Below are positions 1-19,533 of a DNA stretch of 25,840 nucleotides, piece by piece. The notes under the pieces were generated by a model. It saw only the letters and a list, made by a program, of their open reading frames with translations, was not told the origin of the DNA and did not search any database. The DNA comes from Candidatus Hermodarchaeota archaeon (lineage in GTDB: Archaea > Asgardarchaeota > Heimdallarchaeia > Hodarchaeales > Hodarchaeaceae). The translations under genes were made by a program, and so were the position numbers. Location: NCBI GenBank assembly GCA_048886185.1, contig JBHLKY010000015.1:102398-128237 (forward strand), given 5' to 3'. Each line of letters begins with the position of its first letter. Position 1 is the first letter of the stretch.

Positions 1-3000
1 GAAAGATTGCGTCTCGGTGATATTCATGACACTAAAGGTTACCCAGTTATTTGTAGTATAGTTGATCCAGACAGTGTTCAGACCCGCAGCATCAGTGGGT
101 TCTGATACCCAAATAGACACTTGGATGCTTTCATTATACTCAGGATTGGTAGAATTTTGGTTAGCTGGTACTTCAACAGTTGGAATGAAGGAATCTTTAA
201 CAAAGATTGATAATTCTGAGCTATATCCAATATTACCAAATGAGTCGTTATATCCAATCACCCATTTATATATCATACCATAATTCAGCATTGAGTCTGT
301 AAAGATGAATGATTGCATAGTGGTAATATTCACGAGAGTAAAAGTTACCCAATCATCTAAGGTGTAATTTATCCAGACGGTATCTAAACCCGCGGCATCT
401 GGTGGCTCATTTACCTGAATAGTCGTCAAGACACTTTGATTGTACTCAGGATTAGTGCTATTTTGACTGGCTGGAATCTCAACTGTGGGGGCAAAAGAGT
501 CAACTACTGTAAACCAAAATTCCTCACTGAAGCCAGTGTTCCCATAGGAGTCGTTATACCCTATTGTCCAATAATAAGTTAAGCTATAATTCAGCATTGA
601 GGCTACAAAGGTGAAGAATTGCGTGGTTGTTATGTTCATAACTTTGAAGGTTACCCAATCATCGAAGGAATAGTTAATCCAAACTGTGTCTAGTCCAGCA
701 GCATCCACGGGTTCACTTACTCTGATGGTTGCCAATACACTATGGTTGTATTCAGGATTGGTGCTATTCTGATTAGCTACCATCTCGACTGTGGGAGCGA
801 AGGAATCAACTACTGTAAACCAAAATTCCTCACTGAAACCAGTATTCCCATAGGAGTCGTTATACCCAATAAACCATTGATAGTTCTGACCATAGTTCAG
901 TATGATAGCTGAAAAAGTAAATGATTGTGATGTAGTGATATTCACGACATTAAAAGTTACCCAATCATCCAAGGTATAATTTATCCAGACAGTGTCTAGG
1001 CCTGCGGCATCTGGTGGCTCACTTACCCTGATGGTTGTCAGTACACTTTGATTGTATTCAGGGGTCGTAACGTTCTGGTTGGCTGCTATCACAACAGTAG
1101 GAATGAATGAGTCTTTCACTGTGAATGAGAGTTCTTGACTGTAACCTGTATTACCATAAGAGTCATTGTACCCAATTATCCAGTGATATATCATGCTATA
1201 ATTGAGTATTAAATCTGTAAAGGTAAAGGTTTGGGTTTCAGTGATATTTACGAGAGTGAAGGTTACCCAGTTATTTGTAGTATAGTTGATCCAGACAGTG
1301 TCTAGACCTGCAGCATCAATGGGTTCACTAACTTTGATGGTCACAAATACACTTTGGTTGTATTCAGGGATTGAAGTGTTCTGATTGGCTGCAATCTCGA
1401 CACTAGGAATGAAAGAATCTTTCACTGTGAATGAGAGTTCTTCACTACATCCTGTATTGTCAATAGAGTCGTTATACCCGATTCTCCATTTACAAGTTTG
1501 GCTATAATTCAACATTGAGTCCATAAAAGTAAAAGTTTGTGTTTCAGTGATGTTCACAATGAAAAAAGTCACCCAATTGTCAAATGTATAATTAATCCAG
1601 ACTGTGTCTAGACCCGCGGCATCTGGGGGTTCTAATACCCAGATAGATACCTGTACACTTTCATTATATTCAGGAGTCGTAGTGTTTTGATTGGCTACTA
1701 GCTCGACAGTTGGAGCGAAAGAGTCTTCCACTGTGAATGAAAGTTCGTAACTATATCCTGTATTACCATAAGAGTCGTTATAGCCCAGTACCCATTGATA
1801 TACCAAGCCATAATTAAGCATTGAATCCGTAAAGGTGAAAGATTGTGTGGTAGTGATATTCACGACAGTAAAAGTTAACCAATTATCTATGGTGTAATTA
1901 ATCCAAACAGTGTCTAAACCCGCGGCATCTGGTGGCTCACTTACCTGAATGGTTGTCAGTACGCTTTGGTTGTATTCAGGAGTCGTAGTATTTTGATTGG
2001 CTGCTATCTCGACAATTGGAGCAAAAGAGTCAATTACTGTGAACCAAAATTCATTGCTGAAGCCGGTATTCCCAAAGGAATCGTTGTATCCGATTATCCA
2101 CTGATATATCATGCTATAGTTCAGCATAGCTTCAATAAAGAGGAATGATTGGGTGTCAGAGATGTTCATAACAGTAAATGTTGCCCAATCATTGAAAGTA
2201 TAGTTAATCCAGACAGTGTCTAGGCCTGCAGCATCTGATGGTTCACTGACTTTGATGGTTGTCAGCACACTTTGGTTATATTCAGGAGTCGTGGCGTTCT
2301 GATTGGCTGCTATCTCGACAGTTGGAGCGAAAGAGTCTACTACTGTGAACCAAAATTCATCACTGAGGCCAGTATTCCCAAAGGAGTCGTTATATCCGAT
2401 TATCCACTGATATGTCATGCTAAAGTTCAGCATAGCTTCAGTAAAGAGGAATGATTGGGTTTCGGTGATGTTCACTATAGTATAACTTACCCAATCATCC
2501 AAGGTATAATTAATCCAGATAGTGTCTAAACCTGCTGCATCCAGTGGTTCACTCACCTGAATTGTCGTCAGCACACTTTGGTTGTATTCAGGAGTCGTGA
2601 CGTTTTGATTGGCTGCTATCTCGACAATTGGAGCAAAAGAGTCAATTACTGTAAACCAAAATTCATCACTGAGGCCAGTATTCCCAAAGGAGTCGTTGTA
2701 TCCGATTATCCACTGATATGTCATGCTATAGTTCAGCATAGCTTCAGTAAAGAGGAATGATTGGGTATCAGAGAGGTTCAAAACAGTAAAGGTTGCCCAG
2801 TCATTGAAGGTGTAGTTAATCCAGACGGTATCTAGGCCTGCAGCATCAACAGGTTCACTTACTTTGATGGTTGTCAGCACACTTTGGTTATATTCAGGAG
2901 TCGTGACGTTCTGATTGGCTGCTATCTCGACAGTTGGAGCAAAAGAGTCAATTACTGTGAACCAAAATTCATCACTGAAGCCAGTATTCCCAAAGGAGTC

Positions 3001-4479
3001 ATTATATCCGATTATCCACTGATATGTCATGCTATAGTTCAACATAGCTTCAGTAAAGAGGAATGATTGGGTGTAGGTGATGTTCATAACAGTAAAGGTT
3101 GCCCAGTCATTGATGGTATAGTTAATCCAGACGGTGTCTAAACCAGCAGCATCAATGGGTTCTGATACCCAAATAAATACTTGAACACTTTCGTTGTATT
3201 CAGGAGTTGTAGTGTTTTGATTGGCTGCTAGTTCGACAGTTGGAGCGAAAGAGTCCTCAACAGTAAAAGAAAGTGCTTGACTATATTCCGTGTTGCCATT
3301 AGTGTCATTAAAGCCAATCCTCCAGTGATAATTAAGACTATAATTCAACATTGAGTCTACAAAGGTGAAGGATTGGGTTTCAGTTATGTTCACAATAAAG
3401 AATGTAATCCAGTCGTTATAAGTATAATTAATCCAGACAGTATCTACACCGGCAGCATCTGATGGTTCACTGACTTTGATGGTTGCCAATACACTTTGGT
3501 TGTATTCAGGAGCCGTGGTGTTCTGATTGGCTGCTATCTCGACAGTTGGAACGAATGAGTCAATCACTGTGAACCAAAATTCATTACTGAAGCCAATATT
3601 CCCAAAGGAGTCGTTGTATCCGATTGTCCACAGATATGTAATACTATAGTTCAACATGGTCTTGGTAAAGAGGAACGACTGTGTGTCGCTGATGTTCACA
3701 ACAGTAAAGGTTGCCCAATTGTTGATGGTGTAGTTAATCCAGACGGTGTCTAGACCTGCAGCATCAGAGGGTTCTGATACCCAGATAAATACTTGGACAC
3801 TTTCATTATATTCAGGAGTTGTAGTGTTTTGATTGGCTGCTATCTCGACAGTTGGAGCGAAAGAGTCCTCAACAGTAAAGGAGAGTTCTTGGGAAAATCC
3901 AGTATTACCGTTAGAGTCATTAAAGCCAATCCTCCAATTACAAACATAATTATAATTCAACATTGAGTCTATAAAGGTGAATGATTGTGTGGTAGTGATA
4001 TTTATGACAGTGAAAGTCGTCCAATCATCAAAGGTATAATTAAGCCACACAGTATCTAGACCTGCAGCATCAGAGGGTTCTGATACCCAAATAAATACCT
4101 GGACACTCTCATTATATTCAGGAGTTGTAGTGTTTTGATTGGCTGCTATCTCGACAGTTGGAGCGAAAGAGTCCTCAACAGTAAAATAGAGTGCTTGACT
4201 ATATTCTGTATTACCATTAGAGTCGTTAAAACCGATCCTCCAATGACAGACATAACTATAATTCAACATTGAGTCTATAAAGGTGAATGATTGTGTGGTA
4301 GTGATATTTACGACAGTAAAGGTTATCCAATCATTAAAAGTATAATTAAGCCACACAGTATCGACACCGGCAGCATCTGATGGTTCACTGACTTTGATGG
4401 TGGCCAGTACACTTTGGTTGTATTCAGGAGCCGTGGTGTTCTGATTAGCTGTCATCTCAACTGTCGGAACAAAAGAATC
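1..4479 (-). repeat. Repeat subtype D, block 2 (14 complete units plus 1 partial, 306-bp period)
   Basis: 306-bp spacing is visible in the shadow ORFs at 1966, 2272, 2578 and 2884. Segments 2581-2765 and 2887-3071 differ at only 8 of 185 positions. Confidence 0.88.
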
Positions 4480-7400
4480 TTGAACAGTGAATAATCTTAT
4501 TGGCGTTTGATCACCATTTCCTGCCAAATCAGTGAACCAAAAGTAGTATTCGTAAACCTCTCCATATTTGAGTTGATTGGCTGTAAAAGTGTAACTGCCT
4601 GTTGTAGTGACATCCACCATACTCCAAGGATCTCCGAAATTTATACGATAGCGAAATAAAATAGTTAAAACACTACTAGCATCAGAGGGTTCAGAAATTA
4701 TGACTGAAATGGTATTTGATTCATTATACTCTGGCGTGAGCGTAGTTTGATCAAAATCTGAATAAGTTGGAGCCGTGTTATCACTCACAATGAAATTATA
4801 GATTGAAGTGTTATCAATATTACCAGCAGTATCGTTAAATTCGAAATACCAATTGTACACTTGATTATAAATTAAATCACTTTCAGAAAATGTGTAATAA
4901 CTTAAGGAAGTTACATCTTGTTTAATCCACGAACCACTATTAACTTGATAATAGAGCAGGATTGTATCAACTCCGCTTGCATCAAGAGTTTCTCCCACTG
5001 TAATAGTAACTGTATTCGATTCGTCATATTCAGGATTCGAGGTAGTTTGACTGGGACTAATTAAAATATCAGGTGCGTATGAGTCAGCCACTGTAAAAGA
5101 GAATATGTTGCTATAAGCTGTATTTGCTTCAGTATCATTGTACCCAATTCTCCATTGATATGTCAAGCTGTAATTAAGCATGGTCTCTGTAAAAAGGAAT
5201 GATTGCGTAGCAGTGATATTCACTACTGTATAGGATACCCAATTATCAATGGTGTAATTGATCCAGACGAGATCCACTCCTGAAGCATCAGGAGGTTCGC
5301 TGATTTGAATGGATGCCAGAACACTTTGGTTGTATTCGGGATTAGTAGCGTTTTGGTAGGCCGCAATATCAATTGTGGGAGCGAATGAGTCCTTAACGGT
5401 GAAGAAAAGTTCAGGACTGTAGCCTGTATTACTGATAGAGTCGTTGAACCCAAATCTCCATTTATATATAAACCCATAATTAAGCATTGCATCAGTAAAG
5501 GTGAACGACTGAGTACTAGTGATATTCACAACGCTAAATGTTACCCAGTTATCCAAGGTATAATTAAGCCAAACAGTATCCAGACCAGCGGCATCAGTAG
5601 GTTCACTGACTTTGATGGTTGTCAGCACACTTTGGTTGTATTCGGGATTAGTAGCGTTCTGGTAGGCCGCAATATCAATTGTGGGGGCGAATGAGTCCTT
5701 AACGGTGAAGAAAAGTTCAGGACTGTAGCCTGTATTACTGATAGAGTCGTTGAAGCCAAATTTCCATTTGTATGTAAGACTATAATTGAGTATTGCATCA
5801 GTAAAAATGAAAGACTGTGTATTAGTGATATTCACGACAATAAAAGTTACCCAATTATTAGTTGTATAATTGATCCAGATGGTGTCTAATCCTGCAGCAT
5901 CGGTGGGTTCTGATACCGTGATAGAGACCAGTACGCTTTGGTTGTATTCTGGGCTTGTAGTATTCTGACTCGCTGCTACCTCAATTGTTGGGGCGAAAAA
6001 GTCTATAACTGTGAATAAAAAGACTGAGCTATAACCTGTATTGCTAATCGAGTCGTTATAACCAATTTTCCATTGATAAGTTAAGCTATAATTCAACATG
6101 GTATCGGTAAAGAGGAATGATTGGGTCTCGGTAATATTCACGACAGTGAAGCTCACCCAATTATCAAGGGTATAATTGATCCAGACAGTGTCCATCCCAG
6201 CAGCATCAGGGGGTTCTGATACCGTGATAGACACTTGGACACTTTCATTGTATTCAGGATTTGTAGAATTCTGACTGGCTGCTACTACAACTATCGGGGC
6301 AAAAGAATCTTCAACTGTGAACAAGAAGATTGGGGTATACCCTATATTCCCACTAGAGTCATTATAGCCAATTCTCCATCGGTAGGTCAAGCTATAATTC
6401 AGCATGGTATCGGTAAAGAGGAATGATTGGGTCTCGGTAATATTTATGACTGTAAAGGTCGCCCAGCTATTAATGGTATAATTGATCCACACTGTATCAA
6501 CTCCTGCAGCATCGGAGGGTTCTGATACCGTGATAGACACCTGGACACTTTCATTGTACTGGGGGTTTGTATTATTCTGACTGGCTGCCACTAAAACTGT
6601 CGGTGCAAAGGAATCTTTGACAGTAAACCACAGGATTGGACTGTATCCTGTATTTCCACTAGAGTCGTTATAACCAATTCTCCAGTGATAGGTCAAACTA
6701 TAATTCAGCATGGTCTCAGTAAAGAGGAATAATTGGGTCTCGGTAATATTTATGACTGTAAAGGTCGCCCAGCTATTAGTGGTATAATTGATCCACACTG
6801 TATCAAGTCCTGCAGCATCTGGAGGTTCTGATACCGTGATAGACACTTGGACACTTTCATTATATTCAGGAGTTGTAGAATTCTGACTGGCTGCTGCTAT
6901 AACTATCGGGGCAAAAGAGTCTTTAACTGTGAACAAGAAGATTGGGGTATATCCTATATTCCCACTAGAGTCATTATAGCCAATTCTCCATCGATAGGTC
7001 AAACTATAATTCAGCATGGTATCGGTAAAGAGGAATGATTGGGTCTCGGTAATATTCACGACAATAAAGCTCATCCAATTATCACTGGTGTAATTGATCC
7101 ACACTGTATCTAGTCCTGCAGCATCAGGGGGTTCTGATACCGTGATAGACACTTGGACACTTTCGTTGTACTCAGGATTTGTAGAATTCTGACTTGCTGC
7201 CACTAAAACTGCTGGTGCGAAGGAATCTTTGACAGTAAACGATAGGATTGGACTATATTCTGCATTTCCACTAGAGTCGTTATACCCAATTCTCCAGTGA
7301 TAGGTTAGGCTATAATTCAGCATAGCCTCGGTAAAGAGGAATGATTGGGTTTCGGTAATATTCACGACAATAAAGCTCATCCAATTATCACTGGTGTAAT

Positions 7401-10400
7401 TGATCCACACTGTATCTAGTCCTGCAGCATCGGGAGGTTCGCTAACTTGAATGGATGCTATTACAGTCTCGTTGTATTCTGGATTTGTGGTATTTTGAGC
7501 TGCTGGTATCACAATTGTAGGTGCAAAAGAGTCTTCTATAGTGAATGATAATACTTGACTATATCCTGTATTACCACTAGAGTCGTTATAACCGATTCTC
7601 CATCGATAGGTCAAGCTATAATTCAGCATGGTATCAGTAAAGAGGAATGACTGGGTCTCAGTAATATTCACTATTGTAAAGGTCGCCCAATCATCAAAGG
7701 TATAATTAATCCAGACCATATGGATTCCACTGGCATTAATCGGTTCAGTCACATAGATCGACGCTATAACGGTGTCATTATATTCATAAGGAGGATTAGG
7801 GGTTTGATTCGCAGCTTCTATTGTATTTGGCAAATAATCATCCACAACGGTGAAAGAATATTCTAGACTATAACCTGTGTTTCCAGCAGTATCGTTATAC
7901 CCAATTATCCAGCTATAAATCTGGCCATACACTAAATTAGTAAAAGTATAATTTTGGGTTACAGTAATATCATTAATTGTATAAGTTATCCAGTTGTCGA
8001 TTGTATAGTTGATCCACACTTTATGTAAACCACTAGCATTTTCAGGTTCCATCACTTTAATCGACACCAAGACTGTTTCATTATACTGTGGGGTTGTAGT
8101 GTTTTGATTCGCGGCTTCTACAACATCTGGTGCAGAAATATCCCCAGTTGCAATAAAAAACTTATCACTATAACCTGTATTGCCTGCAGTGTCATTGTAT
8201 CCAATAATCCAGGTGTAGTTCTGATTATATTCTAATTGATCAAAAGTATATTTTTGAGTAGGAGTAATGTCTTTAATGATATAGGTTAACCAATTATCCA
8301 TTGTGTAATTAATCCAGACTTTATCAAGCCCACTAGCATTGATGGGTTCAGTCACATTAATCGATGCTACCACGATATCATTAACTTCGTAGGGAGGACT
8401 GGGGGTTTGACTCGCAGGTTCTATTACATCAGGCGCGTAGCTGTCTACAACCGTGAAAGAGAACTCAGCACTATAACCTGTATTGCCTACAGTATCGTTG
8501 TAGCCAATTGTCCAATTATAGATCTGACCATATGCTAGTTGAGCAAAATTGAAGTTTTGAGTCAGAGTGATGTCTTTTATAGTATAGGTTACCCAATTGT
8601 TAATTGTGTAATTAATCCAAACTGTATGAAGTCCACTAGCATTGATTGGCTCCGTTACATTAATCGAAATTGCGACAGTTTCATTAAATTCTGGCATCGT
8701 TATATTTTGACTAGCAGCTGCTACAACATCAGGAGCATAAGTATCTACAACTGTGAAAGAAAACTCCGTACTGTGGCCTGCGTTACCAGCAGTATCATTA
8801 TAACCGATTGTCCAGTTGTAGAACTGGCCATACACTAAATAAGTAAAGGTGTAATTTTGTGTTTCAGTAATATCCTTAATCGTATAGGTTGCCCAATTGT
8901 CTATTGTGTAGTTAATCCAGACTTTATGGATCCCACTAGCGTTAATTGGCTCTGTTACATTGATTGATGCTACTACAGTGTCATTAATTTCGTAGGGAGG
9001 ACTAGGAGTTTGACTTGCGGCTTCTATTACATCAGGTACATAGCTGTCCTCGACCATAAAGGAGAATCCAGCACTATAACCTGTATTCCCAGCAGTGTCG
9101 TTATAACCAATTGTCCATCTATAAATCGGCCCATACACTAAATAAATAAAGGTGTAATTTTGTGTTTCAGTAATATCCTTAATCGTATAGGTTACCCAAT
9201 TGTCTATTGTGTAATTAATCCAGACTTTATGAAGTCCACTGGCATTGATTGGCTCTGTCACATTAATTGTCGCTATAACAGTCTCATTATACTCGTAGGG
9301 AGGACTGGGGGTTTGATTTGCAAGTTTTATTATATTAGGCGCATAACTGTCCATGACTGTGAAGGAGAATTCAGGACAATAGCCCGTATTTCCCACGGTG
9401 TCGTTATAGCCTATTGTCCAATTGTAGGTCTGACCATACATTAAATAAGCAAAGATGTAGTTTTGAGTTGGAGTAATGTCTTTAATTGTATAGGTTACCC
9501 AATTATTTATGGTATAATTAATCCAAACCTTATGGAGCCCACTAGCGTTGATAGACTCAGTCACATTAATAGAAACCATGACTGTTTCGTTAAACTCTGG
9601 AGTTGTGGTGTTTTGGTAAGCAGCTATCACAACATCAGGTGCAAATGTATCTATAACTGTGAAGGAGAATTCATCACTATAGCCTGTATTCCCTACGGTG
9701 TCATTATAGCCTATTGTCCAGTTGTAGATCTGATCATACATTAAATAAACAAAGGTATAGTTTTGAGTCAGAGTGATGTCTTTAATTATATGGGTTACCC
9801 AATTATTTGTGGTATAATTAATCCAAACCTTATGGAGACCACTAGCGTTGATAGATTCAGTTACATTAATAGAAACCATGACTGTTTCGTTAAACTCTGG
9901 AGTTGTGGTGTTTTGGTGAGCAGCTATCACAACATCAGGTGCAAAAGAATCCACGACCGTGAAGGAGAATTCAACGCCATAATCTGTATTCCCTGCGGTG
10001 TCATTGTAGCCAATTGTCCAATTGTAGGTCTGACCATACATTAAATAAACAAAGGTGTAGTTTTGAGTTGGAGTAATGTCTTTAATTGTATAGGTTACCC
10101 AATTATTTGTGGTATAATTAATCCAAACCTTATGGAGCCCACTGGCATTAATTGGCTCTATTACATTGATCGATGCTATAACGGTGTCATTATATTGATA
10201 TGGAGGACTGGGGGTTTGACTCGCAGGTTCCATTACATCAGGTACATAATTATCAACTACAGTGAAGAAGAACTCAGCACTATAACCTGTATTCCCTATA
10301 GTGTCATTATAGCCAATTATCCAATTGTAGGTTTGGCCATATACTAGAAAAGTAAAGGAGTAATTTTGTGACTGTGTGATGTCTTTGATCGTATAAGTTA

Positions 10401-13400
10401 CCCAGTTGTCTATTGTGTAATTAATCCAGATTTTATGGAGTCCACTGGCATTGATTGGCTCTGTCACATTGATCGATGCTATAACAGTATCATTAAATTC
10501 ATAAGGAGGACTGGGAGTTTGACTCGCAGGTTCTACTACATCAGGTACATAATTATCAACTACAGTGAAGAAGAACTCAGCACTATAACCTGTATTCCCT
10601 ATAGTGTCATTATAGCCAATTATCCAATTGTAGGTCTGACCATACATTAAATAAGTAAAGATGTGGTTTTGAGTCAGAGTGATGTCTTTAATTGTGTTTG
10701 CTACCCAATTATTTGTGGTGTAATTAATCCAGATTTTATGAAGCCCACTCGCGTTAATCGGTTCCATTACATTGATCGAAACTATGATTGTTTCGTTAAA
10801 CTCTGGAGTGGTGGAGTTCTGGTTAGCAGCTATCACGACATCAGGTGCAAAAGTATCCACGACCGTGAAGGAGAATTCAACACTATAGCCTGTATTCCCT
10901 ACAGTGTCGTTATAGCCAATTGTCCAATTGTAGGCCTGACCATATATTAAATAAGTAAAGGTGTAGTTTTGAGTCAGAGTGATGTCTTTAACTGTATGGG
11001 TTGCCCAATTATTTCTCGTGTAATTAATCCAAACCTTATGGAGTCCACTAGCGTTAATTGATTCCGTTACATTAATCGACACTATGACTGTATCATTAAA
11101 TTCTGGAGTCATTGTAGTTTGACTAGCAGCTGCCAAAACATCAGGAGCATAGTTGTCTACAACCGTGAAAGAGAACTCATTACTATAGCCTGTGTTACCA
11201 ACAGTATCATTATAACCAATTGTCCAATTATAGGTTTGGCCATATACTAAATAAGTAAAGGCATAATTTTGTGTTTCAGTGATTTCCTTAACCGTATAAG
11301 TTGCCCAGCTGTCTAATGTGTAATTAATCCAGATTTTATGGAGCCCACTAGCAACGATTGGCTCTTTCACATTGATCGATGCTATAACAGTATCATTAAA
11401 TTCATAAGGAGGACTGGGAGTTTGACTCGCAGGTTCTATAACATCAGGAACATAGCTATCCACAACTGTGAATGAGAATTTTGTGCTATAGCCGATATTC
11501 CCCGCAATGTCTTCATAGCCAATTATCCAATTGTAGGCCTGGCCATACACTAGAGAAGTAAAGGTGAAATTTTGAGTTCCAGTGATATCCTGAATCGTAT
11601 AAATCAACCAATTATTCGTGGTGTAATTAATCCAGATTTTGTAGAGCCCACTGGCATTGATCGCCTCTGTTACATAGATCGATGCTATAACGGTGTCATT
11701 ATATTGATAGGGAGGACTGGGAGTTTGACTCGCAGGTTCTATTACATCAGGAGCAAAACTATCCACAGCTGTGAAGGAAAACACTGTACTATAACCTGTA
11801 TTCCCTACAGTGTCATTATAGCCAATTATCCAATTGTAGGTCTGACCATACACTAGAGAAGTAAAGGTGTGATTTTGAGTTCCAGTGATGTCTTTAATTG
11901 TGTTTGTTACCCAGTTGTTAATTGTGTAATTAATCCAAACCATATGGAGCCCACTAGCGTTGATCGACTCTGTTACATTGATCGACACCATGACTGTTTC
12001 GTTAAACTCTGGAGTGGTGGTGTTCTGGTTAGCAGCTATCACAATATCAGGTGCAAAAGTATCCACGACCGTGAAAGAGAACTCCATGCTATAATCAATA
12101 TTTCCCGCAGTGTCATTATAGCCTATTATCCAATTGTAACTCTGGCCATACACTAGAGAAGAAAAGGTGTGGTTTTGGGTTATAGTAATATCTTTAATTG
12201 TGTAGGTAGCCCAATTATTAATTGTGTAATTAATCCAGATCTTGTGGAGTCCACTAGCATTAATCGGTTCTGTCACATGGATCGACGCTACAACAGTATC
12301 ATTGTATTCGTAGGGAGGATTAGGAGTTTGATTCGCAGCTTCTACCACATCAGGCATATAATTATCCACAACAATGAAAGAAAACTCTGAACTGTACTCT
12401 GTGTTCCCAGCAGTGTCATTGTACCCGATCATCCAGTCATAGTTCCAATTAAATACTAGTTGACTAAAGGTAAAACTTTTAGTTAGAGTGATGTCCTTAA
12501 TTATATAATTTGCCCAATCATCTGTCGTGTAATTGATCCAGATCTTATGTAACCCACTAGCGTTTATTGGTTCCGTAACATTGATCATTACTAAGACTGT
12601 TTCATTAAATTCTGGAATCGTTGTATTTTGACTAGCAGCTGTTATAACATCAGGAGTATAGCTATCTACAACTGTGAAAGAAAAATCGGTACTGTAACCT
12701 ATGTTACCAGCAGTATCATTATAGCCAATTGTCCAGTTGTAGATTTGCCCATACACTAATTGAGTAAAAGTGAAATTTTGAGTCTGAGTGATGTCTTTTA
12801 TCGTATAAGTTACCCAGTTGTTAATTGTGTAATTAATCCAAACTGTATGGAGCCCACTAGCGTTGATCGGCTCCGTCACATTTATCGACATCATGACTGT
12901 TTCGTTAAACTCTGGAGTGGTGGTGTTCTGGTTGGCAGCTATCACGACATCAGGTGCAAAAGTATCCACGACAGTGAAAGAGAACTCCATACTATAATCA
13001 GTATTTCCCGCAGTGTCGTTATAGCCTATTGTCCAATTATAGGTTTGGCCATAGACTAGTTGAGAAAAGGTGTGATTTTGATGCAAAGATATATCCTTAA
13101 TTGTGAAGGAGCTCCAATTATCTGTTGTATAATTGATCCACACCTTATACAGGCCACTGGCGCTGAGAGGCTCCGTTACATTGATAGATATTACAACAGT
13201 ATTGTTAAATTCTGGGATTGTTGTGTTTTGATCAGCTGCTTTCACAACATCAGGCGCATGAGTATCCACTACAATGAAAAATACCTCATCAGTATAACCT
13301 GAATTCCCTACTGTGTCATTGAACCAGAAATACCAAGTATAATTCTGGTTGAACTTAAGAACATCCATATTAAATGTATAGTTACCTGTTTCCGTAACAT

Positions 13401-16400
13401 TAACTGAAATAAATGAATTATCATCTATTTTGTAGTATAATAAGATCGTGTCGACTCCACTTGCATCTCCTGGTTCTGAGACTGTAATTGACACCGTATT
13501 TGATTCATTATACTCGGGATATACGCTAGTTTGGGCTAAATCCGAATACGTAGGTACTGTTGAATCCCCAACAGAAAAAGTATTATTAGATGTTTGATCC
13601 CAATTCCCTGCGGTATCATTGAACCAGAAGAACCAGGTGTAATTTTGATTATATTTGAGAAGAGCTTTTGAAAACGTGTAATTACTAATGCTTGTGACAT
13701 CAGTCCAAACCCCAGGACCAGTGTCGTTCTCAAAATATACTAAAATTGTATCGATTTGACTGGCATCCACAGGTTCAATTACATTAATGGATATTGTGTT
13801 ATTTTCATTATACTCTGGTGATGGGTTGCTTTGAATCAAATTAGAAAAAGATGGAGCAATAGAATCAATAACAAGGAAAGTCATAACAGAGCTCTGATTA
13901 ATATTTCCCTCCGTGTCATTAAACCAGAAGTACCAGTCATATCTTTGATTATAAACAAGAATATCGGCGTTGAAGGTATAATTACTTGTATCAGTAACAT
14001 TATTTGATATCCATGGACCCTCATTGACCCGATAATAAAGGAGGATAGTATCTATTCCACTATCATCAGTAGCATTTATAGAAACCGTGTTATTTTCGTT
14101 ATATTCTGGTGATGCACTAGTATGATTGAGGTCTGAATACATAGGAGGTGTAGTATCTTGTTTTTCAGTTCTTTTAATGTTAAAACCAATGCTTACCCAT
14201 TCCTTGGTTTCATTTGTTGTCCACGACATCGTGACAGCTGGTGTTCCTGTCTTTGTACTCCCTGCTCCATAATGAGAGGAAGCCCCTGTTCCCCCCATCT
14301 CAATGTTCCACATTTGTGATTGGCCAGAATCAATTGTCGGCGTTCCATTTGCGAGAGAAGCTATAACATCCTGTACGAGATCCCCTGCACTACTAGCTAC
14401 TGTGATGATTGGTGTTGTATTGTAACCTTGAGCTGTATTTATGTCGTCAATAGGTTCTGTTTGATTTACTCCTGTATACGATATAACTCCAATTGCTGTT
14501 TTATCCTCATTACTCCCTGATAGTGAAACTATGACATTACCTATGCCAAGAGGTGGATTGATAAGCCCCCAAACCTCAATATTCGGTTTACCATTATCAT
14601 GCGAAATCTTTGTAATTAGGTTCAATGATTGGCCTGCAAACGTGATACTTTCTATACTAGTTCCACCATCTGTTTGAACAGATACAATTAATAATCTATT
14701 AGTTCCTGACACGTTATGACTATGCGTGAAAGTATTACTGTCTCCGCTATTGGTGGATACAGCATCAACTGTCACATGAATATAGACTGAAAAGGTCAGA
14801 ATTGGTGTTACACTACTGAAACTTGCGGTATCATTAAACCAAATAAACCACTCCCACCTGCCATAAGATAAAAGAGTAGACGAAAAAGTATAGTTTTGTT
14901 GATTAGTCACTTCCTCGTATTCCCATTTTCCCATATTTACATGGTAATAGAGTAAGAGGGTATCATGTGTAGGATAATTGTGTAAACCAAAATAAACTGT
15001 ATAATTTTGCTCATAATACAAATGTTGTTGCGTCTGATAGGCCCAGCTGTCATTAAACCCTCCATCAAGGTGAATATTATATGTGGTCCCGTTTGGGTTA
15101 CCTTCTCCTGCAGATATACTATTTACTATAAAGGTTATTACATTCTCAGAGGAATTTATCACATAAAAACCTGCTGCATCACCCCCTGGACCATCAACGC
15201 CGTTAATACCTCCTAATCCCCCATCACCTCCGGATATGGTAGTTATATTACTGTTTGAAAACAAGTTAAAACTAGAATTTTCTATATAAACACCTGATCC
15301 TAAACCCCCTGGACCACCATCGCCATTATTACCTCCATTCCCACCCATGCCTCCAGTAACATTTATTATCTCATTCCTATTGAATGTGATACTACTAGAA
15401 TTTTTTAAATAAATACCTGCTCCTAAACCACCTAATCCCCCATTTCCTTTGGTTCCTCCTGATTCTGCTGTTCCACCAATGATATTATTAATGATATTAT
15501 TTTCTATTGTATTATTAAATGAATTGTAAAGAAAAATCCCCGTGCCTGTCCCTCCTGGGCCGCCATTGACTTGGGACGGTGCTTTTCCATTATTTCCCCC
15601 AGTGATATTGGTCAAAATATTATCTAAAATAGAACAATTGTAGGAGTGACGTAATATTATTCCAGCACTTAAATTTTGTAAAATTTCTTGGAAATCTCGT
15701 ACCATATTATCTTTTATGATAATAGTGTTAGAGTTGTTGATATAAATTCCTGTTTTTCCACCAGCAACTAAATTGCCTGAGACATTTAAATCCGAAACTC
15801 TTTCTAGAATCAAACCATAATATTTCGATTTTATGATATTGTTTTTCAGAATAACTTCTTTACTTGCATTTATCCATAACCCTGCATTATAAAGAGGAAG
15901 AGAATAGCCACATCCTTCTATAAAACTATTCAGCATACGAAAAGTACTTCCTGATTTTACCCAGAAACTGTAACTGAAGGAACTAAACGGTGAAATTGTT
16001 GAATTTGCGAAAATATTCATTTCTCCTCCATTTATTACTTCAATGTTGAGCTCTCCATCATAATTGGAGTTTAAATTAATGCTAGAATTCGTTATTGTAA
16101 GATTTCCACCAGTCTGGATTTTCAAATTTCCATTAAAAACGATTATTGAGTTTTCAATTGTACAATTACTTGTATAGAGGTTAGTATGGCCAAAGATACT
16201 ATTTCTCACATCAATGTTTGAGTCAGTAGAATTTACTAAAGAAGTGATAATACCCTTAAGAGGTAATGTAGAGTTTACGATATTGACTGAAGTTGAATTG
16301 TCGCTATACACCCAATCAATACCCTGTTCTGAGGCTGATAGATTTATAAGCCGAATTCTTTGATTGATACCAGAATATATGTTCGTTTTGGTAGAGCTGA

Positions 16401-17421
16401 TTGTTGATCCAGTCAAATTAACATTCTGAGTTACGTAAGATGTTAAATTGTTAGGTGTAACCGATTCATTAGCAAGGATAGTTGCTGTTTTGCTAAGTTG
16501 TTGTATCTCATCATTTATTGAATTCAAGGATGAATTACCAAAGAGGGAGATATCAGTCAAAAGGGAGTCAGTAGAACTTAGAGTGGCGAAATCTAATAAT
16601 TTGATTGTATTTATAGATGATGATTCCTGTATGACTATTGAAGCATTGTTTAAACCTTTGAGATATCCAACTTGTGACTCATTTAGCTCAATTGTTGAAT
16701 TTCCTTTTAATAGAATGGCAGTTGTGTTAGTTTTGGTGCCATAAGTAGTACTATTATTTTCTCCTCTGAATAATTCTATTTCACTGCAAGAGGAATTTAC
16801 TATCGAAGTTGAATTCGCAACAATCAATGAAGGCCTATTAATAGACTTAATAGTAGAATTTATTAAATGAAGCTCTCCATTTCCAATGACTTTAATTCCC
16901 CAAAAGGAAGTTGTACAATTAAAAGTTAGAGTGATATTAACCAGTCGAAGAATTGATGAGTTCACAATAATTGTATGATTAACAGTTAAATGGATATTTT
17001 GCCAAATTGTAGTATCATTAATTATAATGTCTTTTTCAGATAGATCAATATCTTCATTTAAACGACTAATACCAACTTCTGAACCATTTGCTGCTTGAAC
17101 TGTCCCTGGATCATCAGTTGGATTAGTTATAATTATTTCATGTATTCTAAAGTTTGTACTGTCATCTTGCAGTACGTTTAAATCATTACTTTCCGCACTT
17201 GTCATGTAAGCAATTGTTTCGTTAAAATTTTTACTAGATACTTTAAAATTCATATATTGTGATGAATTTAGATTGTTGCGAAGAGGAGGTATTTTAATTT
17301 TTGGGACAGATTCATTTGTTTCTAAACTTCTTAAATTATCGCGATATAGAATGCTAGTAATAGATATCAAAATAATAGATGCAAATAATAATGAGTTAAA
17401 TATTCGATTGAATTGTTTCAT
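1..17421 (-). CDS. Giant secreted/surface glycoprotein (>=5,807 aa, 3' end outside the window): signal/TM, beta-helix, beta-rich module, >=47 tandem Ig/Fn3-like repeats
   Basis: ATG at 17421-17419 (MKQFNRIFNSLLFASIILISITSILY...), with an in-frame TAA at 17428-17430 upstream. The same frame still reads as a repeat at positions 48..1 (NWVTFSVMNITETQSF). Block lengths are exact multiples of the unit lengths. The ORF track lists no long minus-strand ORF here, as expected if there is no internal stop. Confidence 0.95.
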   Translation of the reverse strand, partial: MKQFNRIFNSLLFASIILISITSILYRDNLRSLETNESVPKIKIPPLRNNLNSSQYMNFKVSSKNFNETIAYMTSAESNDLNVLQDDSTNFRIHEIIITNPTDDPGTVQAANGSEVGISRLNEDIDLSEKDIIINDTTIWQNIHLTVNHTIIVNSSILRLVNITLTFNCTTSFWGIKVIGNGELHLINSTIKSINRPSLIVANSTSIVNSSCSEIELFRGENNSTTYGTKTNTTAILLKGNSTIELNESQVGYLKGLNNASIVIQESSSINTIKLLDFATLSSTDSLLTDISLFGNSSLNSINDEIQQLSKTATILANESVTPNNLTSYVTQNVNLTGSTISSTKTNIYSGINQRIRLINLSASEQGIDWVYSDNSTSVNIVNSTLPLKGIITSLVNSTDSNIDVRNSIFGHTNLYTSNCTIENSIIVFNGNLKIQTGGNLTITNSSINLNSNYDGELNIEVINGGEMNIFANSTISPFSSFSYSFWVKSGSTFRMLNSFIEGCGYSLPLYNAGLWINASKEVILKNNIIKSKYYGLILERVSDLNVSGNLVAGGKTGIYINNSNTIIIKDNMVRDFQEILQNLSAGIILRHSYNCSILDNILTNITGGNNGKAPSQVNGGPGGTGTGIFLYNSFNNTIENNIINNIIGGTAESGGTKGNGGLGGLGAGIYLKNSSSITFNRNEIINVTGGMGGNGGNNGDGGPGGLGSGVYIENSSFNLFSNSNITTISGGDGGLGGINGVDGPGGDAAGFYVINSSENVITFIVNSISAGEGNPNGTTYNIHLDGGFNDSWAYQTQQHLYYEQNYTVYFGLHNYPTHDTLLLYYHVNMGKWEYEEVTNQQNYTFSSTLLSYGRWEWFIWFNDTASFSSVTPILTFSVYIHVTVDAVSTNSGDSNTFTHSHNVSGTNRLLIVSVQTDGGTSIESITFAGQSLNLITKISHDNGKPNIEVWGLINPPLGIGNVIVSLSGSNEDKTAIGVISYTGVNQTEPIDDINTAQGYNTTPIITVASSAGDLVQDVIASLANGTPTIDSGQSQMWNIEMGGTGASSHYGAGSTKTGTPAVTMSWTTNETKEWVSIGFNIKRTEKQDTTPPMYSDLNHTSASPEYNENNTVSINATDDSGIDTILLYYRVNEGPWISNNVTDTSNYTFNADILVYNQRYDWYFWFNDTEGNINQSSVMTFLVIDSIAPSFSNLIQSNPSPEYNENNTISINVIEPVDASQIDTILVYFENDTGPGVWTDVTSISNYTFSKALLKYNQNYTWFFWFNDTAGNWDQTSNNTFSVGDSTVPTYSDLAQTSVYPEYNESNTVSITVSEPGDASGVDTILLYYKIDDNSFISVNVTETGNYTFNMDVLKFNQNYTWYFWFNDTVGNSGYTDEVFFIVVDTHAPDVVKAADQNTTIPEFNNTVVISINVTEPLSASGLYKVWINYTTDNWSSFTIKDISLHQNHTFSQLVYGQTYNWTIGYNDTAGNTDYSMEFSFTVVDTFAPDVVIAANQNTTTPEFNETVMMSINVTEPINASGLHTVWINYTINNWVTYTIKDITQTQNFTFTQLVYGQIYNWTIGYNDTAGNIGYSTDFSFTVVDSYTPDVITAASQNTTIPEFNETVLVMINVTEPINASGLHKIWINYTTDDWANYIIKDITLTKSFTFSQLVFNWNYDWMIGYNDTAGNTEYSSEFSFIVVDNYMPDVVEAANQTPNPPYEYNDTVVASIHVTEPINASGLHKIWINYTINNWATYTIKDITITQNHTFSSLVYGQSYNWIIGYNDTAGNIDYSMEFSFTVVDTFAPDIVIAANQNTTTPEFNETVMVSINVTESINASGLHMVWINYTINNWVTNTIKDITGTQNHTFTSLVYGQTYNWIIGYNDTVGNTGYSTVFSFTAVDSFAPDVIEPASQTPSPPYQYNDTVIASIYVTEAINASGLYKIWINYTTNNWLIYTIQDITGTQNFTFTSLVYGQAYNWIIGYEDIAGNIGYSTKFSFTVVDSYVPDVIEPASQTPSPPYEFNDTVIASINVKEPIVASGLHKIWINYTLDSWATYTVKEITETQNYAFTYLVYGQTYNWTIGYNDTVGNTGYSNEFSFTVVDNYAPDVLAAASQTTMTPEFNDTVIVSINVTESINASGLHKVWINYTRNNWATHTVKDITLTQNYTFTYLIYGQAYNWTIGYNDTVGNTGYSVEFSFTVVDTFAPDVVIAANQNSTTPEFNETIIVSINVMEPINASGLHKIWINYTTNNWVANTIKDITLTQNHIFTYLMYGQTYNWIIGYNDTIGNTGYSAEFFFTVVDNYVPDVVEPASQTPSPPYEFNDTVIASINVTEPINASGLHKIWINYTIDNWVTYTIKDITQSQNYSFTFLVYGQTYNWIIGYNDTIGNTGYSAEFFFTVVDNYVPDVMEPASQTPSPPYQYNDTVIASINVIEPINASGLHKVWINYTTNNWVTYTIKDITPTQNYTFVYLMYGQTYNWTIGYNDTAGNTDYGVEFSFTVVDSFAPDVVIAAHQNTTTPEFNETVMVSINVTESINASGLHKVWINYTTNNWVTHIIKDITLTQNYTFVYLMYDQIYNWTIGYNDTVGNTGYSDEFSFTVIDTFAPDVVIAAYQNTTTPEFNETVMVSINVTESINASGLHKVWINYTINNWVTYTIKDITPTQNYIFAYLMYGQTYNWTIGYNDTVGNTGYCPEFSFTVMDSYAPNIIKLANQTPSPPYEYNETVIATINVTEPINASGLHKVWINYTIDNWVTYTIKDITETQNYTFIYLVYGPIYRWTIGYNDTAGNTGYSAGFSFMVEDSYVPDVIEAASQTPSPPYEINDTVVASINVTEPINASGIHKVWINYTIDNWATYTIKDITETQNYTFTYLVYGQFYNWTIGYNDTAGNAGHSTEFSFTVVDTYAPDVVAAASQNITMPEFNETVAISINVTEPINASGLHTVWINYTINNWVTYTIKDITLTQNFNFAQLAYGQIYNWTIGYNDTVGNTGYSAEFSFTVVDSYAPDVIEPASQTPSPPYEVNDIVVASINVTEPINASGLDKVWINYTMDNWLTYIIKDITPTQKYTFDQLEYNQNYTWIIGYNDTAGNTGYSDKFFIATGDISAPDVVEAANQNTTTPQYNETVLVSIKVMEPENASGLHKVWINYTIDNWITYTINDITVTQNYTFTNLVYGQIYSWIIGYNDTAGNTGYSLEYSFTVVDDYLPNTIEAANQTPNPPYEYNDTVIASIYVTEPINASGIHMVWINYTFDDWATFTIVNITETQSFLFTDTMLNYSLTYRWRIGYNDSSGNTGYSQVLSFTIEDSFAPTIVIPAAQNTTNPEYNETVIASIQVSEPPDAAGLDTVWINYTSDNWMSFIVVNITETQSFLFTEAMLNYSLTYHWRIGYNDSSGNAEYSPILSFTVKDSFAPAVLVAASQNSTNPEYNESVQVSITVSEPPDAAGLDTVWINYTSDNWMSFIVVNITETQSFLFTDTMLNYSLTYRWRIGYNDSSGNIGYTPIFLFTVKDSFAPIVIAAASQNSTTPEYNESVQVSITVSEPPDAAGLDTVWINYTTNSWATFTVINITETQLFLFTETMLNYSLTYHWRIGYNDSSGNTGYSPILWFTVKDSFAPTVLVAASQNNTNPQYNESVQVSITVSEPSDAAGVDTVWINYTINSWATFTVINITETQSFLFTDTMLNYSLTYRWRIGYNDSSGNIGYTPIFLFTVEDSFAPIVVVAASQNSTNPEYNESVQVSITVSEPPDAAGMDTVWINYTLDNWVSFTVVNITETQSFLFTDTMLNYSLTYQWKIGYNDSISNTGYSSVFLFTVIDFFAPTIEVAASQNTTSPEYNQSVLVSITVSEPTDAAGLDTIWINYTTNNWVTFIVVNITNTQSFIFTDAILNYSLTYKWKFGFNDSISNTGYSPELFFTVKDSFAPTIDIAAYQNATNPEYNQSVLTTIKVSEPTDAAGLDTVWLNYTLDNWVTFSVVNITSTQSFTFTDAMLNYGFIYKWRFGFNDSISNTGYSPELFFTVKDSFAPTIDIAAYQNATNPEYNQSVLASIQISEPPDASGVDLVWINYTIDNWVSYTVVNITATQSFLFTETMLNYSLTYQWRIGYNDTEANTAYSNIFSFTVADSYAPDILISPSQTTSNPEYDESNTVTITVGETLDASGVDTILLYYQVNSGSWIKQDVTSLSYYTFSESDLIYNQVYNWYFEFNDTAGNIDNTSIYNFIVSDNTAPTYSDFDQTTLTPEYNESNTISVIISEPSDASSVLTILFRYRINFGDPWSMVDVTTTGSYTFTANQLKYGEVYEYYFWFTDLAGNGDQTPIRLFTVQDSFVPTVEMTANQNTTAPEYNQSVLATIKVSEPSDAAGVDTVWLNYTFNDWITFTVVNITTTQSFTFIDSMLNYSYVCHWRIGFNDSNGNTEYSQALYFTVEDSFAPTVEIAANQNTTTPEYNESVQVFIWVSEPSDAAGLDTVWLNYTFDDWTTFTVINITTTQSFTFIDSMLNYNYVCNWRIGFNDSNGNTGFSQELSFTVEDSFAPTVEIAANQNTTTPEYNESVQVFIWVSEPSDAAGLDTVWINYTINNWATFTVVNISDTQSFLFTKTMLNYSITYLWTIGYNDSFGNIGFSNEFWFTVIDSFVPTVEIAANQNTTAPEYNQSVLATIKVSEPSDAAGVDTVWINYTYNDWITFFIVNITETQSFTFVDSMLNYSLNYHWRIGFNDTNGNTEYSQALSFTVEDSFAPTVELAANQNTTTPEYNESVQVFIWVSEPIDAAGLDTVWINYTINDWATFTVMNITYTQSFLFTEAMLNYSMTYQWIIGYNDSFGNTGFSDEFWFTVIDSFAPTVEIAANQNVTTPEYNQSVLTTIKVSEPVDAAGLDTVWINYTFNDWATFTVLNLSDTQSFLFTEAMLNYSMTYQWIIGYNDSFGNTGLSDEFWFTVIDSFAPIVEIAANQNVTTPEYNQSVLTTIQVSEPLDAAGLDTIWINYTLDDWVSYTIVNITETQSFLFTEAMLNFSMTYQWIIGYNDSFGNTGLSDEFWFTVVDSFAPTVEIAANQNATTPEYNQSVLTTIKVSEPSDAAGLDTVWINYTFNDWATFTVMNISDTQSFLFIEAMLNYSMIYQWIIGYNDSFGNTGFSNEFWFTVIDSFAPIVEIAANQNTTTPEYNQSVLTTIQVSEPPDAAGLDTVWINYTIDNWLTFTVVNITTTQSFTFTDSMLNYGLVYQWVLGYNDSYGNTGYSYELSFTVEDSFAPTVELVANQNTTTPEYNESVQVSIWVLEPPDAAGLDTVWINYTFDNWVTFFIVNITETQTFTFMDSMLNYSQTCKWRIGYNDSIDNTGCSEELSFTVKDSFIPSVEIAANQNTSIPEYNQSVFVTIKVSEPIDAAGLDTVWINYTTNNWVTFTLVNITETQTFTFTDLILNYSMIYHWIIGYNDSYGNTGYSQELSFTVKDSFIPTVVIAANQNVTTPEYNQSVLTTIRVSEPPDAAGLDTVWINYTLDDWVTFNVVNITTSQSFTFSAIILNYGQNYQWFIGYNDSYGNTGFSEEFWFTVVDSFAPTVEMVANQNSTNPEYNHSVLATIRVSEPVDAAGLDTVWINYSFDDWVTFKVMNITTTQFFTFVASMLNYSLTYYWTIGYNDSYGNTGFSEEFWFTVVDSFAPTVEIPASQNSTNPEYNQSVLTTIQVNEPPDAAGLDTVWINYTLDDWVTFTLVNITTMQSFIFTDSMLNYGMIYKWVIGYNDSFGNIGYSSELSIFVKDSFIPTVEVPANQNSTNPEYNESIQVSIWVSEPTDAAGLNTVWINYTTNNWVTFSVMNITETQSF
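4480..5085 (-). repeat. Repeat subtype A, block 2 (2 units, 202 aa) interrupting the D array
   Basis: DTILLYYQVNSGSW...YNWYFEFNDTAGN and LTILFRYRINFGDPW...YEYYFWFTDLAGN resemble the first three units. Confidence 0.8.
5086..7533 (-). repeat. Repeat subtype D (102 aa), block 1, 8 units
   Basis: 2448 bp = 8 x 306. Motif AAGxDTVWINYT...NITETQSFLFTxxMLNYSLxYxWxIGYNDS. Confidence 0.85.
7843..13266 (-). repeat. Repeat subtypes B (100 aa, PEFNE) and C (101 aa, PPYE/QxND), 18 units
   Basis: 10 B plus 8 C units give 1808 aa, exactly 5424 bp. Shared motif SGLHKVWINYTTNNW...KDITxTQNYTF...YNWTIGYNDTxGN. Confidence 0.85.
13267..14157 (-). repeat. Repeat subtype A, block 1 (3 units, 297 aa)
   Basis: Units with a DTILLYY-type strand (e.g. 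DTILLYYRVN) and W-x-FWFNDT-x-GN; they lack WINYT. Confidence 0.8.
14170..14778 (-). other. ~200-aa non-repeat beta-rich module between the beta-helix region and the repeat stalk
   Basis: HVTVDAVSTNSGDSNTFTHSHNVSGTNRLLIVSV...EVWGLINPPLG...SYTGVNQTEPI...GDLVQDVIAS...TMSWTTNETKEWVSIGFNIK. It shares no motif with the flanking repeats. Confidence 0.6.
15130..15620 (-). repeat. Four ~41-aa beta-helix coils, each carrying a Gly-rich GGxGG loop
   Basis: GGNNGKAPSQVNGGPGGTGTGIFL / GGTAESGGTKGNGGLGGLGAGIYL / GGMGGNGGNNGDGGPGGLGSGVYI / GGDGGLGGINGVDGPGGDAAGFYV. Confidence 0.8.
15130..17050 (-). other. Right-handed parallel beta-helix region (pectin-lyase/NosD-like fold)
   Basis: Recurrent I/L-x-N-S-x-I and GI-x-L/I-x-N-S-x-N-x-I-x-x-N-x-I motifs, e.g. 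GIYINNSNTIIIKDN, GIILRHSYNCSILDN, GIFLYNSFNNTIENN. Boundaries are approximate. Confidence 0.7.
17344..17421 (-). other. N-terminal signal peptide or signal anchor of the giant protein
   Basis: Basic N-terminus (MKQFNR) followed by hydrophobic LLFASIILISITSILY. Confidence 0.7.
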
Positions 17422-19053: not shown

Positions 19054-19466
19054 TGAAAATATTGGTCTCATTCGAGAATTATACTATGAAAGGAGTTCAT
19101 ATTAATATTTAAAAGTTTAAAAAAGACTGATACTACTAGAATTGTAGATTTTAGGCCAACTTCTCGTCTTAATTCATTAATAGCTCTGATTAGAGGTCAT
19201 CAGATCATCATAATTATATTTTTTATTCTTATAGTTCAGTTTGGAAATCAAAATTTCTTTTCTATTATTTTATGGATTTTGAATGAAAAGTAATTAATCG
19301 AATAATTTAGCTAGAAAACTTATTCGCCTTTTAATAGATATACGGATAATTTTTTTAGTACCTCATTTAATAGATGAATCCTTGATCATTTAAAGTGGAA
19401 GAAACTAAGTTTTATGCGATAATTCCCGTTTTAGGGTTTGTATCAATCGAATAATGTTTCTAATTC

Positions 19467-19512: not shown

Positions 19513-19533
19513 ATCGTAGTAGGTGAGCTTATC

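Follow-up and report, generated by a model that had tools for sequence, protein, structure and literature searches.

A giant gene of about 12,566 codons for a predicted Ig-repeat surface protein of an Asgard archaeon

Results

The window analysed here is a 25,840-nt stretch of contig JBHLKY010000015.1 (C15:102398-128237) from the 4.84-Mb genome of a Candidatus Hermodarchaeota archaeon (75 contigs, 35% GC, 96% complete). The best explanation of the data is that it encodes the N-terminal, outer 5,807 residues of a single giant gene of about 12,566 codons from this Asgard archaeon. From the N- to the C-terminus, the product consists of a signal/membrane segment, a beta-helix, one immunoglobulin-like (Ig-like) unit, a 215-aa module that is homologous to phage minor tail proteins, 99 contiguous units, a second beta-helix, seven further units, and a membrane helix with a 6-residue tail. 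We consider it probable that this protein is a fibrillar adhesin or tether with a length of about 0.4-0.5 µm, its adhesive function being predicted from this architecture.

A giant gene that probably spans a scaffold gap

An earlier note, made from the window sequence alone, had described an uninterrupted minus-strand frame of 17.4 kb which continues past the window. The frame is indeed uninterrupted and consists of 5,807 codons without a stop, beginning with an ATG (window 1..17421, minus strand, in a listing of open reading frames (ORFs) with open ends allowed); its 3′ end is open. It does continue up to a stop codon at C15:81941, but not on contiguous sequence: a scaffold gap of 100 Ns (C15:102298-102397) directly precedes window base 1. 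Merged across this gap, the frame has 12,566 codons and is by far the longest one of the genome. As the runner-up stop-free frame has only 4,204 codons, a length of 5,807 codons greatly exceeds what chance would produce in DNA of 35% GC. The merged protein, which shares the numbering of the window protein through aa 5807, has a mass of 1.41 MDa and a pI of 4.05, with 1,429 acidic versus 301 basic residues and 22 cysteines. The heads of the orthologues P0009 and P0014 align to it from residue 3 or 94 on. The earlier note had called the gene hidden, a term that is not apt, as the public gene calls already include, for the 128,237-nt contig, the exact products of 5,807 aa (window side) and 6,768 aa (far side of the gap). 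Its absence from the ORF track is presumably due to the gene running off the end of the window.

The last 77 nt before the gap and the first 77 nt after it are identical, forming an exact suffix-prefix overlap, and this 77-mer is found nowhere else in the genome. Such a pattern would fit two contigs that both end on a shared assembly k-mer. The frame is kept when the Ns are read through and also when the 77-nt overlap is merged. An independent metagenome contains a JGI contig of 45.6 kb which codes for a 75%-identical protein (P0006), and in this protein both sides of the joint are in one frame in a gapless alignment. After the joint, the register of P0006 is clear, with 79% identity as compared to at most 59% when the alignment is shifted.

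It could be argued that the gap hides a stop codon, a frameshift or unrelated DNA, so that an unanchored, secreted protein of 5.8k residues would exist beside a separate 6.8k-residue protein or a pseudogene. We consider this very unlikely. The far piece would be devoid of a signal peptide and the window piece devoid of an anchor. In the orthologous end pieces that could be recovered, the signal occurs only at N-terminal ends and the anchor only at C-terminal ends. In addition, the 77-nt overlap is exact and in frame, the 75%-identical relative has both sides in one frame, and purifying selection is found along the whole array (see below). What speaks for a split are the 100 Ns themselves, the lack of any contig or protein from other assemblies of the population that bridges the joint, and a frame break within one unit of the related contig L005. 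The Logan contigs from four sediment-metagenome runs, all of one study, do not reach across the gap; the Logan "joints" that were listed all trace to one contig which runs off the end of the locus and touches repeats. A protein search for near-identical proteins across the joint yielded only relatives with at most 53% identity.

On the JGI metagenome contig L005 (9300-9900), the giant gene of the 75%-identical relative is called as two overlapping genes of 3,204 and 4,924 aa. The change of frame falls within one unit, from which about 25 residues seem to be missing, and may represent either a real lesion or an assembly error.

The repeat array

The count of at least 47 Ig/FN3-like domains given in the earlier note is borne out by a hidden Markov model (HMM) of the unit, which detects 47 complete units and a cut one in the window. 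Of the 107 units in the whole protein, which are about 100-102 aa long, one is found at aa 791-881, 99 follow each other without interruption at aa 1089-11137, and seven come after an insert of 675 aa. At the nucleotide level, Tandem Repeats Finder (TRF) reports a period of 300-306 nt with 75-79% matches (window 227-13320). The units are diverged, with a median amino acid identity of 52% (range 17-93%), and two main types can be distinguished by their motifs, WINYT/IGYND (85 units) and ILLYYRVN/WYFWFND (14 units). Those of the second type are grouped in twos or threes, about 15-25 units apart, and flank both beta-helices. This arrangement suggests either growth of the array through duplications of larger blocks or a role of these units as markers of hinges. 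Their sites include merged aa 4114-4315, 6662-6862, 8393-8593 and 10022-10322, among others.

Exact nucleotide repeats of at least 77 nt are restricted to seven cases, the longest having 184 nt. Between neighbouring units of the whole array, the median synonymous divergence (dS) is about 1 and the ratio of nonsynonymous to synonymous divergence (dN/dS) is 0.19; the window part gives 0.17 at a dS of 0.9. Given this divergence, the copies are old and under purifying selection, and thus they are not duplications introduced by the assembler. Within each side of the gap, the gene is continuous. Logan contigs of the four sediment-metagenome runs, which are possibly the source of the assembly, tile the locus at 99% identity or more without indels, and the depth of the array contigs equals that of the single-copy head (51-60 versus 52 in X1). 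The runs listed as containing the gene include no RNA run, which says nothing for or against its expression. Other NCBI assemblies of the same population cover aa 1-2288, 6023-8310 and 10059-12566 at 99.9-100% identity. The first of these pieces ends within an exact repeat of 99 nt, and the second one starts at the second copy of a repeat of 83 nt.

The AlphaFold2 (AF2) model of a unit is a beta-sandwich of seven to eight strands with high confidence (predicted local distance difference test score, pLDDT, 94.9). Its best matches among solved structures are FN3 domains (TM-score 0.6-0.69), while in the ESM Atlas it matches Ig-like domains of archaeal and bacterial surface proteins with a TM-score of about 0.8. 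Close to its ends, the unit has conserved acidic residues (E31, D85, D102, together with N89). The earlier note had not recognised the repeat as a named family, and we reached the same result. Only 12 of 45 single units reach Pfam Big_13 (PF19077) at E<=0.01, the best one at 3.8e-5; over a stretch of 12 units the Big_13 scores total 41.8 bits, with all single stretches below the cut-off. The unit profile has no relatives in the PDB by sequence. On this basis, the unit does not appear to fit any named family well.

A profile comparison of the unit with the Big_13 repeats of the neighbouring protease (see below) gave no relationship, the hhalign probability being 2.5% with only the 10-residue NDxxGN motif aligned.

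Head, second beta-helix and membrane segments

The head had been proposed to be a beta-helix, and this assignment is upheld. Pfam Beta_helix (PF13229) scores 53.9 bits in the head and 67.9 bits in the C-proximal module, both above the cut-off of 25.9. Across its whole 790 aa, the head is 51-56% identical to those of P0009 and P0014. The second beta-helix is part of the insert at aa 11138-11812, which consists of a short Ig-like segment and the beta-helix and is located seven units from the membrane. The two beta-helices are paralogous (34% identity over 335 aa, E 9e-28).

A sequence comparison of the head with the PDB gave a weak match to NosD (E 5e-4). We rejected an identity as NosD (TIGR04247), as the scores of 32.5 and 20.3 bits are far from the curated cut-off of 300; only the beta-helix repeat is in common.

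Kyte-Doolittle peaks above 1.8 occur only twice in 12,566 aa. One is the segment at aa 7-26, which the earlier note had already taken for a signal or transmembrane segment. The other one is found at about aa 12538-12560 and is followed by KRKKNT and the stop codon; the C-terminal anchor which the earlier note had suggested searching for beyond the window thus exists as a single membrane helix with a basic tail. This topology agrees with a type I membrane protein that is exported via Sec and has hardly any cytoplasmic part. With its N-terminal signal-type segment and its C-terminal helix, the giant protein is predicted to be attached at the cell surface. RTX or hemolysin-type families were found neither in Pfam scans of merged aa 11114-11834 nor in an NCBIfam scan of the C-terminal 1,453 residues.

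The protein is rich in N-x-S/T sequons. There are 571 of these (4.5 per 100 aa), which is a six-fold excess over the ORFs of at least 200 aa in the genome (0.75 per 100 aa), and shuffles of the protein's own residues yield only 250 +/- 13. Dense N-glycosylation of the stalk is predicted from these sequons.

A tip module related to phage minor tail proteins

The accessory module postulated between head and array is a real domain, for which the AF2 model has a pLDDT of 93.7. It is homologous, by sequence and by predicted fold, to a domain of phage minor tail proteins. In sequence searches it matches the "minor tail protein" families PHROG 553 (E 6.9e-11, residues 5-205 of 215) and PHROG 2106 (E 4.4e-7). 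Structure searches in BFVD retrieve minor tail proteins of Mycobacterium and Gordonia phages and many proteins of uncultured Caudovirales (TM-score 0.8-0.91, E 5e-18 to 1e-10), and viral Atlas clusters match with TM-scores of 0.85-0.87. Further homologues occur in small proteins of 256-375 aa with up to 52% identity. Unlike in the phages, the domain does not belong to a virion but forms one insert within a giant protein of the cell. There is no Pfam match and, by sequence profile, no relative in the PDB, in which fold searches yielded nothing better than weak similarities to jelly-roll or bicupin folds (Foldseek TM-score <=0.33; VIA best Z 5.7).

Table 1. Features of the window. Positions refer to the 25,840-nt window; residue numbers refer to the giant protein.
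Feature	Position	Strand	Basis
77-nt joint sequence, repeated exactly at C15:102221-102297 across the 100-N gap	1..77	.	Assembly joint; the gene does not end there
Stalk array, window part, aa 1089-5807: 46 complete Ig/FN3-like units of ~100-102 aa and one cut at the window edge	1..14157	-	Unit HMM, TRF
Accessory module, aa ~878-1092, 215 aa, two-lobed all-beta domain	14158..14778	-	AF2 fold; PHROG and BFVD matches
First, divergent Ig-like unit, aa 791-881	14779..15051	-	Unit HMM, 34.7 bits, E 9e-13
Distal head, aa 27-790: right-handed parallel beta-helix with glycine-rich inserts	15052..17343	-	Pfam Beta_helix PF13229
N-terminal hydrophobic segment, aa 7-26: Sec signal peptide or signal anchor (predicted)	17344..17403	-	Kyte-Doolittle peak above 1.8
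ATG start codon of the giant gene	17419..17421	-	First start in the open frame; orthologues P0009 and P0014 begin likewise, basic and then hydrophobic
Small upstream gene P0003, 213 aa as called	17754..18395	-	Homologues directly upstream of orthologous giant genes in two other species
MarR/winged-helix-type regulator, 147 aa	19603-20046	+	Weak NCBIfam matches; the region between P0003 and the protease gene in which it lies is AT-rich (27% GC)
S8 subtilase, 1,839 aa, membrane-anchored, about 10 Big_13 Ig-like repeats of 82 aa	20151..25670	-	Pfam Peptidase_S8 6e-48, Big_13 8e-52

Relatives and their distribution

With a profile of 45 units as the query, a search of 1.84 billion representative proteins detected 851 proteins at E<=1e-3, 52 of them at E<=1e-30. 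The best matches are fragments from metagenome-assembled genomes (MAGs), most of them at contig edges, which their submitters had labelled as Heimdallarchaeota, Hodarchaeota, Hodarchaeales, Thorarchaeota or Promethearchaeota. Longer but more distant arrays occur in a Helarchaeota MAG (6,711 aa) and in a Promethearchaeota MAG (7,032 aa, annotated as "Ig-like domain repeat protein"). The units form an Ig-like repeat family without a name which is largely confined to Asgard MAGs. The architecture is kept in the relatives: the head, the second beta-helix and the membrane tail are shared by orthologous pieces, of which P0009 and P0014 are N-terminal and P0007, P0010, P0012 and P0015 are C-terminal. 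Outside the genus as defined by GTDB, the unit was not detected in any of the 20 genomes searched, which belong to other genera of the class.

Homologue records that apparently stem from one GTDB genus carry differing phylum labels (Heimdallarchaeota, Hodarchaeota, Thorarchaeota). Labels given by submitters are unreliable and a poor guide to the taxonomy of the homologues.

Proposed function as a fibrillar adhesin

We propose, as the most probable reading, that the giant protein is exported by means of its N-terminal signal and is fixed in the cell membrane by the single C-terminal helix with its basic cytoplasmic tail of six residues. The approximately 107 Ig/FN3-like domains, strongly acidic and, by prediction, densely N-glycosylated, would form a thin stalk. 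As the anchor is C-terminal and the non-repeat modules are N-terminal, the stalk should carry the beta-helix and, in this species, the inserted phage-minor-tail-type domain away from the membrane. There, they would act as glycan- or surface-binding tip modules which hold partner cells, particles or matrix.

The length of the stalk can be estimated from MpIBP, a 1.5-MDa ice-binding RTX adhesin of Marinomonas primoryensis (PMC5550230, PMC4083281). Its ~120 Ig-like repeats, each with 104 residues, extend over 0.6 µm (PMC5550230). At about 5 nm per domain, 107 units would, fully extended, reach about 0.4-0.5 µm. The stalk length on the order of 200 nm given in the earlier note has thus to be revised, as the whole gene is more than twice as long as its window part. 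MpIBP is similar in several respects. Its mass of 1.5 MDa is close to the 1.4 MDa of the giant protein, and in both proteins a gene region of about 37 kb specifies a stalk of Ig-like beta-sandwich repeats, which number about 100-120 and have about 102-104 residues each. Both also have ligand-type modules far from the anchor, and in both cases the repeats break genome assemblies. However, MpIBP is a bacterial protein with type I secretion, C-terminal RTX repeats and an N-terminal plug in the outer membrane, while the giant protein has an N-terminal signal and a C-terminal membrane helix, and thus the reverse polarity, with no RTX repeats detected. The repeats of MpIBP are identical while those of the giant protein are diverged, and heavy N-glycosylation is predicted only for the latter.

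Fibrillar adhesins, which consist of an anchor, a repeat stalk and a distal binding domain, have been defined and surveyed as a class in bacteria (bioRxiv 10.1101/2020.12.07.414375 = PMC8286594; PMC9210967). The giant protein shares with them the surface anchor, the stalk of tandem domains, and non-repeat domains at the distal tip which are candidates for adhesion. It differs in being archaeal and in having a plain membrane helix instead of a sortase, type I secretion (T1SS) or autotransporter mechanism, and its tip domains are not from a recognised adhesive family.

Several observations weigh against this interpretation or restrict it. Neither of the two domains found at the distal end, the beta-helix and the minor-tail-type domain, is from a family with a proven ligand, and the beta-helix could be an enzyme (a lyase or a hydrolase). 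The accessory module is missing from both orthologous heads that are available (P0009 and P0014). As these align over 790 aa without it, the module appears, from this comparison, to be a species-specific insertion at the tip. Of the 21 further genomes from the genus, only five have the unit at E<=1e-10. The three which consist of a single contig have no unit match, among them G010, which is 96% complete (the other two are 70-71% complete). The presence in only five genomes and the lack of a match in G010 indicate that the giant gene is accessory and that a core cell-biological role is unlikely. The number of units is unproven at the gap: the exact repeat of 83 nt mentioned above, with copies two units apart, is located 34 nt from the joint, and before the joint the register of P0006 is uninformative, with 71-75% identity at every shift. 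As all of these registers score alike, the alignment of P0006 supports a single gene across the joint and not an exact unit count.

The protein might instead be a structural coat or spacer, that is, a hydrated, glycan-rich layer or sheath similar to halomucin or to a stalked S-layer, which protects or spaces the cell without having specific targets. We regard this as rather unlikely. A coat would account for the extreme sequon density and acidity and for a very long protein with few non-repeat modules. There is an archaeal precedent in halomucin from Haloquadratum walsbyi, a secreted, mucin-like protein of 9,159 aa that surrounds the cells (PMC4378361, PMC1544339) and, like the giant protein, is an extracellular archaeal giant with a signal sequence. 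In their abstracts, halomucin is not described as a membrane-anchored rod of Ig domains. Distinct non-repeat modules at the distal end, including the species-specific insert of phage-tail type, are typical for adhesins and not for coat polymers. The anchoring by one membrane helix also speaks against a coat, and for a basic envelope layer one would not expect that most of the other genus genomes searched gave no match.

Tailed phages place right-handed beta-helices and minor-tail-type domains at their receptor-binding ends, and their tailspikes act as polysaccharide depolymerases. The tip of the giant protein is made up of these module types, and it might thus be an antagonistic or defensive device, either a tethered beta-helix depolymerase that attacks, or feeds on, the envelopes of other cells, or a decoy or barrier against viruses. 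The patchy distribution and a swapping of tip modules would suit an arms-race gene, and a role in predation has been proposed for giant proteins of Omnitrophota (bioRxiv 10.1101/2023.11.21.568195). We nevertheless consider such a device improbable. The scans yielded neither a catalytic family nor a catalytic motif, all matches of the beta-helices are generic (PF13229, with NosD-like matches well below the cut-off), and the giant protein does not contain any lytic, peptidase or glycosidase domain.

As a more speculative version of the adhesin interpretation, which we consider doubtful as yet, the protein could be a glycan-clad "fishing line" of half a micrometre that finds and holds specific partner or prey cells, with tip modules of phage type that are exchanged between species in a similar way to the receptor-binding proteins of phages.

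Neighbouring genes

Directly upstream of the giant gene is P0003, which has no Pfam or NCBIfam match and, in the atlas, no usable hit. With its homologues in two other species (E 5e-12 and 3e-22), this gene adjoins the giant gene upstream in three species. P0003 is probably longer than called and would then have an N-terminal membrane helix at about 18396-18461, which is in the same frame but located upstream of the first ATG, GTG or TTG. An out-of-frame ATG at 18484-18486 (ATGAAGATAAAAAGG) would reach the frame of P0003 via a -1 shift in a run of five A. In the L015 orthologue the helix is preceded by a plain ATG, in the L014 orthologue by a TTG. For the start of P0003 (window 18380-18500), possible explanations include an error in sequencing, a start codon of non-canonical type, and a frameshift.

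The gene for an S8 subtilase is located further upstream, and its product ends in a hydrophobic helix with a basic tail. The true start is probably an internal ATG 16 codons downstream (MCCGVKVQF..., signal-like) and not the TTG at 25670. Within 10 kb upstream of the orthologues there is no S8 gene, and the protease is thus not a conserved neighbour. A second large S8 protease, with 1,711 aa, is encoded downstream of the giant gene (L003:7788-12923).

Also downstream of the giant stop codon there are two convergent genes for membrane proteins of 495 aa with a coiled-coil-like tail and of 157 aa with several helices (L003:17465-18952 and 19427-19900), which do not belong to a Pfam family. Both are kept beside the 3′ end of an orthologue in another species, with 38% and 43% identity. 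In G001, the 3′ neighbour is found beside an unrelated 595-aa ORF without detectable similarity to the C-terminal part of the giant protein.

An Rfam scan of the window gave no RNA genes. The assembly is devoid of a 16S rRNA, and the taxonomic assignment therefore relies on the labels which submitters gave to the homologues.

Many giant Asgard genes have been noted in Heimdallarchaeum, where the so-called aloposons (Otus/Ephialtes) integrate at tRNA genes downstream of giant genes and carry four conserved upstream genes including a MinD/ParA ATPase (PMC8813620). The window has two large genes in tandem on the same strand (1,839 aa and about 12,566 aa), the giant gene is patchy within the genus and its flanks differ between species, so that it might be the cargo of a comparable mobile element with tandem giant genes. 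This is highly improbable. Unlike for aloposons, neither the window nor the 20 kb downstream of it contains a tRNA gene. No integrase or ParA gene is found in the available flanks, the contig ending 170 nt upstream of the protease gene. The 1,839-aa gene codes for an ordinary S8 protease that is not conserved beside the orthologues, and the 3′ flank of the giant gene is syntenic with that of one other species (neighbours 38-43% identical).

Discussion

Giant Asgard surface proteins are already known as a kind, and the one described here is unusually large. The earlier note had named halomucin as the known example of an archaeal protein of this size, which has to be corrected: most reports of archaeal proteins with more than 10,000 aa concern the Asgard group (bioRxiv 10.1101/2023.11.21.568195), and giant Asgard genes have been described as well (PMC8813620). 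With other Asgard giants, the protein shares a very long Ig-like ectodomain, a single membrane span and many sequons; what sets it apart are the cytoplasmic tail of only six residues, the pair of beta-helix modules and the tip domain of phage type. Of particular interest are the true length once the gap is read through, the duplicated beta-helix, the tip domain of phage minor-tail type, and the unnamed family of Ig-like repeats. With about 12.6k residues, the protein would rank among the largest archaeal proteins predicted. Scaffold gaps split such giant genes into "partial" proteins in the public records, which masks their true size.

Through the tip module, a protein of the cell surface is connected with an uncharacterised domain which minor tail proteins of phages commonly contain. 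This connection could help to assign a function to that domain. The surface proteins of Asgard archaea and their means of holding partner cells are little known, and the giant gene provides a concrete and very large candidate. It has a clear polarity, with the anchor at the C-terminus and binding-type modules at the far N-terminal end, and its parts can be expressed and tested. If the protein does act as a line that holds specific cells, it would provide a molecular handle on the Asgard cell-cell contacts which are invoked in models for the origin of eukaryotes.

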